Assembly (NCBI GenBank): GCA_016935525.1
Contig: JAFGQU010000004.1
Location: 1,314-65,313 of the forward strand
DNA: 64,000 bases
Direction: 5' to 3'
Origin: Candidatus Omnitrophota bacterium
Lineage (GTDB): Bacteria > Omnitrophota > Gorgyraeia > Duberdicusellales > 4484-171
Below are positions 4,260 through 63,986 of the stretch, in pieces. Both the position numbers and the translations under genes were made by a program. How positions within the stretch are numbered: position 1 is the stretch's first letter; each line of letters begins with the position of its first letter. The notes under the pieces were generated by a model. It saw nothing but the letters and a program-made list of their open reading frames with translations. It was not told where the DNA came from and did not search any database.

Positions 4260-4742
4260 TCACTGGACAATATCCCGAGTGATATCGCCGCTGGGTTTTA
4301 TCTGGCTGACTTCTTTTATCCTGATCTTTAAAATACTCACGGTTTTAAGCGAAATAAGTTCATCCACAAGACTGCGCGTGCTTTTCCTCACTCCCTGGAT
4401 GACTCGTTCGGTAGCTAATCTGACCTGTTTACTGTTCATCTCACCAGAAAGCTGCCGGAACACGTCGCCTTTATCGATCACCTCGGCCCTACCGTACAAT
4501 TGATAGCCGATGACTTTATTCATATCGACCGCCGATAAAGAGATCTTCGGGTTACGTTTTATGTTTTTATAGGTCCGGCCCACGACGAAATCGACCAGAT
4601 AAATATAGTTGTCCTCTATCTTTAACAAGGGTTTGGCGGACGTATGCGGCCGGCCGCGTTTATCGGAAGTACCGATAAACAGAAATACCTGGCGCCGCAA
4701 AAAATCCATGATCTCTTTTGTAAATAATTTTCTGTCTATCAC
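4260..4742 (-). CDS. Pyridoxamine 5'-phosphate oxidase-like FMN-binding protein.
   Basis: FIGTSDKRGRPHTSAKP and YQLYGRAEV fit the PNPOx split-barrel pattern. The start overlaps the stop of the upstream radical SAM gene (ATGA), indicating translational coupling. Confidence 0.5.
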   Translation of the reverse strand: MIDRKLFTKEIMDFLRRQVFLFIGTSDKRGRPHTSAKPLLKIEDNYIYLVDFVVGRTYKNIKRNPKISLSAVDMNKVIGYQLYGRAEVIDKGDVFRQLSGEMNSKQVRLATERVIQGVRKSTRSLVDELISLKTVSILKIRIKEVSQIKPSGDITRDIVQ

Positions 4743-17512: not shown

Positions 17513-17611
17513 AGTAATATCTTTTTTAAAATAGTAACACTATAAAGATTTGTGTCAAGGAGAATCTCTCCCGTCATACGTACTGCGCCGTGAGTATCGC
17601 ATATGTGATGC

Positions 17612-17704
17612 GGTCTTTGGTTTATCGTCTCTGGTCTTTAGTCTTTGGTATATAGTTTTTCTCTTGTTTTTCCACTAAATACTGTCGACCATAGACTAAC
17701 GACT
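17612..17704. repeat. Cluster of TAGTCTNTGGT-family short repeats: three tandem direct copies plus one inverted copy. Includes a 20-mer identical to 51093..51112.
   Basis: Direct copies gtctttggt (17613..17621), gtctctggt (17628..17636) and tagtctttggt (17640..17650). Inverted copy accatagacta (17690..17700). The segment tcgaccatagactaacgact (17685..17704) is the exact reverse complement of 51093..51112. Confidence 0.6.
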
Positions 17705-22193: not shown

Positions 22194-22431
22194 CTTTTAC
22201 CTCCTCGTTTAAAAATAGCGTACATCCGATAAATATGAAAAGTATGATTTATCATATAAAACATACTCCTGTTTTCTCTTTTTGTCAACGAAACAGATTT
22301 ACATCTCGACAGAGACTCGCCGCTTTCGGCCTTCCCAATTCCTAAAAAAACCCTATAATGAGATAATCACGTAACGCGAAACGCGTCACGCGTAACGCGC
22401 CGAAAAGAAAATCAGAACGAAATAAATTATT

Positions 22432-32950: not shown

Positions 32951-33185
32951 GTTTCTTTAGTCGTTGTTATCGGGTGACGGGTATCGGGTTTCGGGTACCG
33001 GTGAAAATTCCAATTTTTTTCTACACCCTATACCCGGCCCCCTATGGCATGACCAGAGATTATAGACTCGTCCCCAAGTATCAGGCTATTATATCAAAAA
33101 GACACCGTTTGGTAAGGATTCTTCCGGAAACTATTTTTGCGGCATTCATAGGTATGAACAGTCAACGGTTCGGGGGCGGCCCTAT

Positions 33186-47637: not shown

Positions 47638-47688
47638 AACACGTCACACGTCACAGGTCACACGACACACGATTTTCAACTTTTATTC

Positions 47689-49036: not shown

Positions 49037-49696
49037 CTAAAAATTAAGCTTTATTTTTGTGCCTAACACATGCAGGTCGTTCCACTTCTCGTTTTTTTCG
49101 CTGGTTTCCCAGAGATAAAAAATATCGCCGGATACCTGTTTTGTGATCTTAAAACTTATCCCGCTGAAAAAACGGTTCTTATTCAGGGTTTCGGCATCGA
49201 AATCATAGAATATCTCATCGGCGACAAACGGACGGATCTCAAACCGGGTGAACTTCCAAGGCAGTTTTACCGTAAAATTATTGCGGTAACGCCAATAATC
49301 CTCGGCATCTTCCCGTTCGCGGTACTCAAACCGGCTGCGATCGCTCAAAGAGAAACCGAACCGGCTCCACTTTACCGTCGCGTTCAGATGAGGCTGACTA
49401 TCATCTTTCCACCGGCTGTTTCTCTCTTCCCGTACATAACGGTAATTGACGCCGACATCCAGCCATGACGCTATCCCGGAATATACCACCCCCAAATCGG
49501 AATGCTGATAATAAATATTCCCGCCGTCATCGCCGAACCGGAGTTCTTCCTCCAGAGTAACCTTCCAGTTTTCATTTACTTTCCAGGATATACTTTCGTT
49601 ATTCCAATATTGGAAATCGCCGTCGTCAAAAGCGGCACAATCAGAGAGAAAAAACACCGAAAAGAAAAGTAATACGCCTATACCATAGAATCGCTT
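49037..49696 (-). CDS. DUF2490-like outer-membrane beta-barrel protein.
   Basis: Start placed at MKRFYGIGVLLFF (signal peptide). W/Y-rich beta-strands and a C-terminal F. Confidence 0.45.
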   Translation of the reverse strand, partial: KRFYGIGVLLFFSVFFLSDCAAFDDGDFQYWNNESISWKVNENWKVTLEEELRFGDDGGNIYYQHSDLGVVYSGIASWLDVGVNYRYVREERNSRWKDDSQPHLNATVKWSRFGFSLSDRSRFEYREREDAEDYWRYRNNFTVKLPWKFTRFEIRPFVADEIFYDFDAETLNKNRFFSGISFKITKQVSGDIFYLWETSEKNEKWNDLHVLGTKIKLNF

Positions 49697-49704
49697 CATA
49701 GCAA

Positions 49705-50653: not shown

Positions 50654-50983
50654 TCATCTCATACCTTTAGCTACCAATAAAGCAATCATCGCCACCGGGA
50701 AAAACAGGTCGAAATTTACCACGAAATCAGTATAATAATCCGGTTTGTCGGCGAAATTTTTCATTGTATCTATATGGATAATCTCGTGACATCCCCGAAT
50801 AAAAGCGGCCGAAGCGAAAATGACTGCAGTTACACCGATAAAAATATCTCCCCGCCATAAAAATAACATTCCCACTACACCAAAAATGCCGTTCACATAT
50901 ACGATGGGATTCATTACCACCTCCGTGTATCGCGTCAGCGTAAAGAGCGCCAACATTTTTAAATCACTGTAACCTTTCCTCAA
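50654..50983 (-). CDS. Small membrane protein (DUF1634-like partner of TauE).
   Basis: Three TM helices. Sits immediately upstream of the TauE gene. Confidence 0.4.
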   Translation of the reverse strand: MRKGYSDLKMLALFTLTRYTEVVMNPIVYVNGIFGVVGMLFLWRGDIFIGVTAVIFASAAFIRGCHEIIHIDTMKNFADKPDYYTDFVVNFDLFFPVAMIALLVAKGMR

Positions 50984-51030
50984 TCGCCGTAATCAAGTGC
51001 TGTGGTATACGGCAACAGCACAAAAAAAAA

Positions 51031-51078
51031 GAGGCTAAAAAGCTCTGGAAATCAGAACTCTTTAGCCTCCGGTTGTCC
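51031..51078 (-). terminator. Rho-independent terminator on the minus strand.
   Basis: 9-bp stem gaggctaaa / tttagcctc with a 21-nt loop, followed on the minus strand by a run of nine T. Confidence 0.6.
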
Positions 51079-51314
51079 GGTCAGCCATTTTTAGTCGTTA
51101 GTCTATGGTCGATAGTCTCTAGTTCACGTGTTAGCCCGTGCTCGCGTTACTCCGCTGAAGTGAACGATGAAACGAGGGACGTTCGCTCATTTTATTCACT
51201 GAGACGACCGCTCACATCGTTCGCTAGGACGCATCATTCGTCCTTCGTCCGAATGACCAAAGGGAATGGTCGTCCTTCGTGTTTTCACCGTATAAGAACG
51301 GGTCTAACGGAAAA
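51079..51314 (-). ncRNA. Candidate structured RNA, 3'UTR or attenuator region between the DUF2292 gene and the terminator. It carries a 20-mer identical to one at 17685..17704.
   Basis: Multiple local helices (gttcac..gtgaac, gaacg..cgttc, ggacg..cgtcc, gacca..tggtc). A direct repeat tcgtccttcgt occurs twice. No credible ORF. Confidence 0.3.
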
Positions 51315-51503
51315 TTACCGTACTCTCAACTTGTTTATTTTATCGATCTGTACGATCTTCCCGTCCTGGATATGGATCTGGACCGATCCGTAACGTATCT
51401 CTTCCAATGCCCGGGCGATATCGCACAAGATACTGTTCTGCATATGGACCTCTTTTCCGGAACCATTTTTTTTATGCAATTCTTTCGACATCCGCATAGA
51501 CAC
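51315..51503 (-). CDS. DUF2292/YezD-family small protein.
   Basis: YGSVQIHIQDGKIVQIDK matches the YezD signature. Confidence 0.5.
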   Translation of the reverse strand: MSMRMSKELHKKNGSGKEVHMQNSILCDIARALEEIRYGSVQIHIQDGKIVQIDKINKLRVR

Positions 51504-51504
51504 G

Positions 51505-51906
51505 TTACACTAAATCGGAAAGTCTCAGTTTTTCGAGGCGGTCCGAGACATAATCCCGTATTTCTTTTAAGACCCGCAATATCTTTTTTTCCTTTTCCAA
51601 AGGCGTATGCGCGTAAAAATATTTACTTACCGACTCACTCGGGGCAAGCGCACCGTCCATCAACCTGGCGATCTCGGCCACACTTATCCTGCCGGCGGAT
51701 TTGGAAAGTCTATACCCGCCGTGAGCGCCGCGTTTAGTCTTTACATAGCGGGCCTGTTTAAGGATAAGGAACAGCTGTTCCAGGTATTTCTTGGAAATAT
51801 CGTACTCGGCGCAGATATCCTCGATCTTTATATACTCGTCTTTCTCGTGACGGGCGATATAGATCAACGCCAGCAATAAATATTCGCTTTTGGTGGTAAG
51901 CCTCAT
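51505..51906 (-). CDS. Rrf2-family transcriptional regulator.
   Basis: MRLTTKSEYLLLALIYIA N-terminal HTH. Start chosen at the Rrf2-typical Met, since the track extends 12 codons further. Confidence 0.65.
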   Translation of the reverse strand: MRLTTKSEYLLLALIYIARHEKDEYIKIEDICAEYDISKKYLEQLFLILKQARYVKTKRGAHGGYRLSKSAGRISVAEIARLMDGALAPSESVSKYFYAHTPLEKEKKILRVLKEIRDYVSDRLEKLRLSDLV

Positions 51907-52062
51907 TTGTCTACTTTGTTTATAGAGATTATAGACTAACATGTCCGGCTTGTCAAATTATTTTTCAGAACTCTCTGATTACGGTGATTTCTCTGGGCAA
52001 ATATTGCCCAATACCCCTTCCCTCTTTCGGGAGAAGGGATGGAAGATCCGGCGGGATTTTTA

Positions 52063-63923: not shown

Positions 63924-63986
63924 TTAGTCTCTGGTAGAAAACATAGCTACTATCGACTAGAGACCAGAGACTAGAGACTCTATTTT
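63924..63986 (+). terminator. Stem-loop built from an inverted pair of TAGTCTCTGGT repeats downstream of the yjfB-like gene. Possible terminator or REP-like element.
   Basis: tagtctctggt (63925..63935) pairs with accagagacta (63963..63973). A further copy is gactagagactc (63970..63981), followed by tattttat. Confidence 0.4.

Follow-up and report, generated by a model that had tools for sequence, protein, structure and literature searches.

A conserved 21-nt hairpin at the terminator downstream of yezD, a candidate attenuator of sulfur-linked operons

The 64-kb stretch of Omnitrophota DNA analysed here (the window) contains a minus-strand gene series which runs from a sigma-70 promoter through an Rrf2-family regulator gene, yezD, a gap and an intrinsic terminator; genes for a small membrane protein, TauE/SafE and DUF2490 follow (Table 1). 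The first-pass annotation placed the end of a DUF2292 gene at 51315, with a non-coding stretch beyond it. Both statements hold: the gene has a clear Pfam match, and 244 nt without a conserved ORF separate it from the terminator. Two open reading frames, one of 106 aa on the plus strand (51073-51393) and one of 30 aa on the minus strand, were rejected as genes; neither has a Pfam match or shows conservation. The label 'DUF1634-like' for the first gene past the terminator is not supported; the 87-aa protein gives only a sub-threshold match to DUF6790.

Promoter-like sites are absent from the spacer between yezD and the hairpin (51086-51314), and also from the interval between the terminator and the first start codon. 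Transcription across the hairpin can therefore start only at the promoter upstream of the Rrf2 gene, and the membrane-protein, TauE and DUF2490 genes are presumed to be under the control of the terminator.

Table 1. Coordinates of the features discussed (window positions unless a locus is named).
Feature	Position	Strand	Description
Sigma-70 promoter	51928..51956	-	TTGACA-17-TATAAT, 12/12 consensus; upstream of Rrf2 gene
Rrf2-family regulator, CymR-like	51505..51906	-	133 aa; first operon gene
yezD (DUF2292)	51315..51491	-	58 aa; Pfam PF10055, E=4e-14
Spacer	51086..51314	-	229 nt between yezD stop and hairpin; lineage-specific; gap alignments
Heptad repeat TAGTC..TAGTC..	51093..51123	+	with 20-mer at 51093-51112
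Conserved 21-nt hairpin GCUGACCGGACAACCGGAGGC	51085..51065	-	candidate antiterminator or aptamer; exact pattern match
Intrinsic terminator	51070..51021	-	stem 51070..51030 (17-18 bp, 7 GC pairs), 5-nt loop, U9 51029..51021; folding
87-aa membrane protein	50654-50917	-	first gene past terminator
TauE/SafE	49705-50550/50571	-	past terminator
DUF2490	49037-49699	-	past terminator
Second locus of 20-mer repeat family	17605..17704	-	between macB-type ABC gene and nikR
tRNA-Cys(GCA)	L134 2702-2772		metagenome locus
tRNA-Cys(GCA)	L145 1048-1118		metagenome locus
tRNA-Cys(GCA)	L164 2699-2768		metagenome locus
tRNA-Cys(GCA)	L165 523-592		metagenome locus
tRNA-Cys(GCA)	L193 2669-2738		metagenome locus
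tRNA-Cys(GCA)	L199 1335-1405		metagenome locus

The terminator is a stem-loop followed directly by a U tract on the transcribed strand, and it is strong (-27.5 kcal/mol, z=-7.4). The first-pass annotation was right about its strength; the 9-bp stem that it described at 51031..51078 is about half the size of the one found by folding. Directly after the U9 comes a second hairpin, GUGCUGU...ACAGCAC (50997-51021, minus strand), which lacks a U tract. In the plus-strand reading this hairpin and the A-run gave weak spurious Rfam matches to Chlorobi-1 and SAM_alpha; these are artefacts of the antisense-read terminator and the A-run.

The 5' foot of the terminator, GGAGGC (51070..51065), is also the 3' half of a 21-nt hairpin. 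In the window this hairpin consists of a 3-bp outer helix P0 (G1-C21, C2-G20, U3.G19), an asymmetric internal loop with G4A5 opposite A18, a 4-bp inner helix P1 (C6-G17, C7-G16, G8-C15, G9-C14) and an ACAA tetraloop. In isolation the 21-mer folds as (((..((((....)))).))) with -8.8 kcal/mol, which accounts for 95% of the ensemble. Folded in context, the terminator takes hairpin nucleotides 16-21 (-29.6 kcal/mol). Since G16-C21 form the terminator foot, the hairpin and the foot are mutually exclusive; a conserved alternative structure thus shares nucleotides with the terminator stem. A mini-ORF that overlaps the hairpin (MADRTTGG*) was rejected because its ATG is missing in two related loci, L002 and L004.

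Related loci were compared by the identity of their Rrf2 proteins to that of the window (L001, 88%; L002/L003, 84%; L004, 78%). Relatives at 95-96% identity lie on contigs too short to include the spacer and were left out of the spacer comparison. L001 keeps the full gene order, including membrane protein-TauE-DUF2490; L002/L003 and L004 keep Rrf2-YezD, followed by other genes or TauE. The sole block common to all of them is GCTGACC-R-GA-Y-AAC-Y-GGAGGC with the terminator. Its R and Y positions change together (CCGG/CCGG vs CCAG/CTGG), and the terminators after the block are unrelated in sequence between loci while their pairing is kept. In L005 (CP070807.1, a complete Omnitrophota genome and the only complete relative; 4419-4677) a yezD-like ORF begins after the Rrf2 gene and then runs into a masked stretch of Ns. 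Another Rrf2 relative, P0016, lies among other genes and does not carry the motif.

The remainder of the flagged region varies between these loci. The block begins 20 nt past the yezD stop in L002 and L004; the usual distance elsewhere is 2-60 nt. The insertion between stop and hairpin is 229 nt in the window and 132 nt in L001. These two insertions share their first ~22 nt and their last ~65 nt, which include the 20-mer discussed below, and a closing helix GUUAGACCCGU/ACGGGCUAAC is predicted in both; their interiors are unrelated. The ~130-nt interior specific to the window contains the 11-nt direct repeat TCGTCCTTCGT, which was found at 51238-51248 and 51270-51280 as the first-pass annotation stated. 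Most of the spacer, together with the 20-mer and the direct repeat, is absent from L002 and L004 and only partly present in L001. Judged by these alignments, most of the flagged region is a young, fast-evolving spacer, of which about 200 nt are lineage-specific.

The description of the region as rich in local helices stands only weakly. The spacer alone gives z=-2.25 and the 301 nt with the terminator z=-4.4, so that the apparent structure comes mostly from the terminator. Helix conservation in homologous loci likewise extends to the 21-nt hairpin and the terminator and leaves out most of the spacer, the direct repeat and the 20-mer.

The hairpin is found far beyond Omnitrophota. An exact-pattern scan with GCTGACCNGANAACNGGAGGC (18 fixed bases) of one genome per species returned at least 120 loci; about 17 chance matches are estimated for 18 fixed bases in the scanned collection. 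The matches come from at least eight phyla. Carriers in Bacillota include Sporomusa, Clostridia, Paenibacillus, Siminovitchia, Kurthia and Metabacillus; others are Geobacter and Desulfuromonadales, Chloroflexota, Actinomycetota, Planctomycetota (including Kuenenia), Armatimonadota, Methylomirabilia and methanotrophs. Intrinsic terminators with a 5' arm starting at motif positions 14-19 accompany 93 of the 127 matches listed, the window and the first loci included. Matches that clearly do not pair lie in high-GC coding DNA and are probably due to chance.

A covariance model (R1), built from the 66-sequence alignment described below, scores the window copy at 62.9 bits (E=2e-14) and finds no further credible copy elsewhere in the 64-kb window. 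In the fetched loci it detects additional, non-identical copies; several per locus are possible in Geobacter-type genomes. Many copies lie 10-30 nt past a recognisable promoter, and many have no ORF before them and are located in the 5' leaders of cysK, sulfate-assimilation, ssuA-like or Rrf2 genes.

Expression platforms vary. Planctomycetota copies without a terminator have a longer platform, with a GGAAGG Shine-Dalgarno sequence at its end and a Porin_O_P gene beyond it, an arrangement which suggests that here the hairpin controls translation. In Planctomycetota/Kuenenia loci L031, L051, L066, L068, L072, L088 and L096 this platform is conserved over ~80 nt up to GGAAGG, ahead of the Porin_O_P (anion porin) gene, and its folding gave no clear alternative-pairing model. 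Two weaker matches without a terminator, at L071 2293-2350 (a Thiobacillus denitrificans MAG) and L021 1611-1638, place the GGAGG of the motif 7-13 nt before an ATG. Such an arrangement would imply Shine-Dalgarno sequestration, a logic opposite to antitermination; these two copies may be chance matches. Actinobacterial loci (L144 2674-2800, L151, L156, L162, L167 and L190) carry two tandem hairpins ~90 nt apart, which follow a promoter-like GTTGACA...TACTCAT after the yezD stop codon. For the second of the two, a GAGACC...GGUCUC hairpin takes the place of the overlapping U-tract terminator.

Both hairpin helices covary across phyla. Since the pattern-selected set was forced to 18 fixed bases, invariance at those positions is there by construction; only the N positions of the pattern and the DUF2292-anchored set described below are unbiased for covariation. 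The P1 hairpin plus the terminator was examined in an alignment of 66 sequences (A3). Paired cells make up 97.2% (shuffles, 77.7%); the covariation score reaches 0.557, compared with 0.162 for shuffles, of which none in 500 scored as high. When the 3' partner is shifted by one to three columns, pairing falls to 22-56%. At the unconstrained P1 pair, 38 sequences have AU, 23 GC, four GU and one CG, and none is unpaired. The terminator stem covaries over the same 66 homologous instances: past the fixed GGAGGC, its pairs show four to six pair types each. Divergent copies change C6-G17 to U-A three times, C7-G16 to U-A and G1-C21 to A-U; their loops are 4-5 nt long and A-rich.

P0 was examined in 80 metagenome loci chosen only for a DUF2292 relative. 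From DUF2292-selected loci 40 hairpins were aligned (A6), with an extraction pattern that left the P0 positions free. Here 95% of cells are paired vs 80.6% in shuffles (0/500 as high). The outer P0 pair is GC (26), AU (11), CG (1) or GU (1), the second CG (32), UA (7) or UG (1), and the third UG (34) or CG (6). P0 often extends to 4-5 bp, as in AAACU/AGGUUU, CGGUU/GACCG and CGAUC/GAUCG. The GA-opposite-A internal loop, the flanking U.G pair, P1 and a loop starting with A are invariant.

The genes downstream of the hairpin point to sulfur metabolism: cysteine synthase, MetK, TauE, and the uptake and reduction of sulfate and sulfonates. The first downstream ORFs of the pattern-selected set number 85 among the matches listed. 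Among the same matches, the products include PALP/cysteine synthase (10), Porin_O_P (9), NifH-like proteins (4), TauE (4), NMT1/SsuA-like proteins (4+3), PAPS reductase (3), and ATP sulfurylase, Cys/Met PLP enzymes and MsrA (2 each); MetK, NlpA and SrpI encapsulin occur once each. The DUF2292-anchored set gives radical SAM proteins (7), MetK (4), NMT1 (4) and TauE (3), with single cases of PAPS reductase, sulfite reductase and a sulfate-binding protein. Variant copies also precede Rrf2 genes in Geobacter-type loci. A conserved candidate aptamer is thus found upstream of a coherent set of sulfur genes in at least eight phyla and in two independent samples, and the hairpin-linked genes are taken here as a putative sulfur-acquisition regulon.

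Six metagenome loci have a tRNA-Cys(GCA) gene right after yezD and its hairpin-terminator, with radical-SAM genes beyond it (Table 1). In L145 the tRNA starts 9 nt past the yezD stop. It is curious to find a tRNA for cysteine behind a sulfur-linked attenuator.

The hairpin is also linked to yezD. A DUF2292 gene ends 2-322 nt upstream of it on the same strand in 34 motif-selected loci among the matches listed, and lies 0.25-1.6 kb downstream of it in about nine more. Starting from the protein, a hairpin is present within 250 nt downstream of DUF2292 (E<0.01) in 36 of the 74 assessable loci. Some of the apparent negatives hold hairpin variants such as ACUGACUGGAAAGACCAGAGGU; other variants are the tandem actinobacterial copies, with GAUC/GAUC and GGUU/GACC P0 helices. 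Within the 8-kb loci covered, many copies are distant from any yezD. The DUF2292 family comprises 3,096 clusters at 50% identity (E<=1e-3).

Taken together, these data make it likely that the element is a cis-acting transcription attenuator in the Rrf2-yezD-(membrane protein)-tauE-DUF2490 operon, in which hairpin and terminator probably act as an on/off switch for the downstream TauE genes. By default the terminator would win and transcripts would stop at ~51021, still encoding Rrf2 and YezD. An effector that stabilises the hairpin would prevent the terminator foot from forming and allow readthrough into the membrane-protein, TauE and DUF2490 genes. This ON-switch logic is read from structure alone. 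P0, with 3-5 bp, cannot by itself outcompete the terminator. A terminator-type attenuator for the TauE genes was among three readings offered by the first-pass annotation. The features on which that annotation relied (spacer, repeat and 20-mer) are not conserved, so its attenuator is supported on other grounds: overlap of hairpin and terminator, conservation across phyla, covariation and linkage to sulfur genes. The structured 3'UTR that it also proposed is trivially true of the terminated Rrf2-YezD transcript.

A simpler explanation is a plain terminator, internal to the operon or at the 3' end of yezD, with the hairpin as a terminator accessory or an element of mRNA stability or processing. 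It would account for the near-constant company of a terminator, for the frequent position of the motif straight after the yezD stop codon, and for a terminator far more stable than the hairpin (-27.5 vs -8.8 kcal/mol). It sits poorly with the many copies just past promoters in leaders that have no upstream ORF, and with the several copies per locus possible in Geobacter-type genomes. Moreover, P0 covaries despite its competition with the terminator foot, and Planctomycetota keep the hairpin while the terminator is exchanged for another platform. A plain terminator is therefore improbable.

The 20-mer at 51093..51112 recurs exactly at 17685..17704, as first reported; two matches in the window compare with 0.02 expected by chance. 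The two copies are not in the same transcript orientation, since the first is on the plus strand and the second on the minus strand. As the flanking genes are all on the minus strand at both loci, the transcripts would be reverse complements of each other. Under the sRNA reading of the first-pass annotation, the ~280-nt region would yield an sRNA, either independent or derived from the 3'UTR; its 20-nt segment would then pair with RNA from the macB-nikR intergenic region at 17.7 kb. In favour are the perfect 20-nt complementarity that the two minus-strand transcripts would have, a strong terminator at the end of the region, and the prediction for the window as well as for L001 that the 20-mer region is unpaired.

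Other observations place the 20-mer in a family of repeats. On the minus strand, GAC occurs every 7 nt, four times, at 51094-51117, and the periodic pattern returns at 63955-63978; these two matches to the four-GAC, 7-nt-period pattern compare with 0.01 expected. The copy at 17704..17685 forms an imperfect inverted repeat with ACCAAAGACUAAAGAC (hairpin z=-4.0). With up to one mismatch, TAGTCTNTGGT has 10 matches where 2.0 are expected (0/100 shuffles), in clusters at 17.6, 51.1 and 63.9 kb. In the first and the last of these clusters the repeats are inverted pairs (hairpins) that begin 2-3 nt past a stop codon. Multiple intergenic copies in both orientations, above chance, are the mark of a dispersed repeat, and the 20-mer is best explained as two copies, one per orientation, of a REP/STRR-like element.

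Further intergenic heptad arrays are located at 17613-17660, 22370-22399, 32968-33001, 47639-47671 and 63925-63979, with units such as CGTAACG, TATCGGG, ACACGTC and GACTAGA; their start is often 2-3 nt past a stop codon, and inverted partners accompany some of them. These arrays have the look of an STRR/REP-like feature that extends over the entire genome of this Omnitrophota bacterium. REP elements and the STRR heptamers of cyanobacteria are likewise short, dispersed, intergenic and often just past stop codons, with a 7-nt period, both orientations and hairpin-forming ability. The family described here differs in its unit, (T/C)AGTCT or AGAC-type, and in having a handful of copies in 64 kb.

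Since the 20-mer belongs to a dispersed heptad/inverted repeat family, also present at 63.9 kb and 33 kb, its identity at the two loci is explained by repeat spread. A trans RNA-RNA interaction through it is possible but unsupported. The sRNA as a whole is improbable: the spacer lacks a promoter-like site and is not conserved beyond L001, the 20-nt segment is absent from L002 and L004, and the region has no Rfam match. Still less credible is a DNA operator for an Rrf2/CymR-type repressor, which the palindromic core (CCGG-N4-CCGG) and the adjacent Rrf2 gene might suggest; it is rejected because G.U is tolerated and A.C is not (CCGG/CUGG is seen 8 times, and at U3.G19 the G.U pair is what is conserved) and because the element keeps strictly to one strand with respect to genes and terminators, and it is also opposed by a location downstream of promoters rather than over them and by the non-palindromic asymmetric GA/A loop.

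In kind, the element resembles known attenuators. The HMP-PP (thiS motif), preQ1-I and guanidine-II riboswitches are also short hairpins with an internal loop whose 3' strand is the 5' strand of a terminator, and small riboswitches, like the hairpin described here, combine the same sensing hairpin with different expression platforms across phyla. The present hairpin differs from these three in sequence, in its internal loop and in its context, which is sulfur assimilation instead of thiamin, queuosine or guanidine. It also has its signature gene upstream of the element, which is unusual. A conserved hairpin over a terminator is found, as here, at the hut terminator bound by HutP and at the RAT hairpins of LicT, SacY and BglG. 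As with hutP, yezD is a small, regulator-sized gene directly upstream in the operon, and there are multiple target copies per genome. In contrast to LicT and HutP, YezD has no CAT/PRD or HutP homology, and its role as an RNA-binding regulator is putative.

The S-box (SAM-I) and sul1 (PMC5737381) are RNA elements upstream of sulfur, cysteine and methionine genes, as is the hairpin. The S-box also works through a terminator/antiterminator, as proposed here, but it is a ~100-nt four-way junction and an OFF switch; sul1 has a different structure. The first-pass annotation proposed an Rfam search, and no family matches the transcribed strand. Rfam 15 gives no match over the whole window at gathering thresholds, nothing on the minus strand of 50900-51600 even at E<=10 (SAM-I, sul1 and thiS/HMP-PP included), and nothing at the motif positions of ten other motif-bearing loci at E<=1. 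A limited literature search found no description of the hairpin or of a sulfur-linked attenuator like it, and nothing relevant on riboswitches for cysteine, sulfide, sulfate, thiosulfate or O-acetylserine, though the hairpin may have been described under a different name. The element thus appears to be a terminator/antiterminator attenuator of an undescribed family; it stands out by its very small size and by the signature gene upstream.

To our knowledge, no RNA sensor for inorganic sulfur or cysteine status is known besides SAM riboswitches and Cys/Met T-boxes. A compact hairpin-terminator switch common to Bacillota, Geobacter, Actinomycetota, Chloroflexota, Planctomycetota, methanotrophs and Omnitrophota would mark out a sulfur regulon that is both broad and ancient. 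The gain would be a new riboswitch class whose 21-nt aptamer is tractable, or else a function for YezD; annotators would also have a marker by which to recognise sulfur-responsive operons of uncultured lineages. Cultivable carriers (Geobacter, Paenibacillus, Sporomusa, Kurthia and Metabacillus) permit direct testing.

The genes that would be controlled are those induced by sulfur limitation, so the effector should report low sulfur or cysteine. One option is a small molecule such as O-acetylserine, which would make the element a riboswitch. This is favoured by the very small aptamer, its invariance across phyla and the interchangeable expression platforms. The other option is the YezD protein, encoded just upstream, acting in a HutP- or LicT-like manner; it is favoured by the position of this regulator-sized gene directly upstream of the target and by its CymR-controlled expression. 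In B. subtilis, yezD is repressed by CymR and Spx (PMC3479203), which fits the pairing of Rrf2 and yezD in the window.

YezD may be an RNA-binding antiterminator protein, new to science, that recognises the GA/A-loop hairpin, an idea put forward tentatively and judged rather unlikely. YezD would be made once CymR/Rrf2 repression lifts under sulfur limitation, and would bind the hairpin just downstream of its own gene as well as the other copies in the genome. Bound YezD would prevent the terminator foot from forming, and sulfur-acquisition operons would be switched on. If true, YezD and the hairpin would represent a new protein-RNA attenuation system across many phyla.

Limited full-text searches returned no description of YezD/DUF2292 function beyond repression by CymR and Spx. 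A sequence search of the PDB with YezD found no relative. The AlphaFold model (pLDDT 71) consists of a helix (13-31) and a beta-hairpin (35-53); Foldseek against the PDB gave no match better than E=1.2, and the model shows no RNA-binding signature. Tandem two-domain DUF2292 proteins of 104-131 aa also exist (P0148, P0154, P0156, P0160 and others), which hints that the functional unit may be a dimer.
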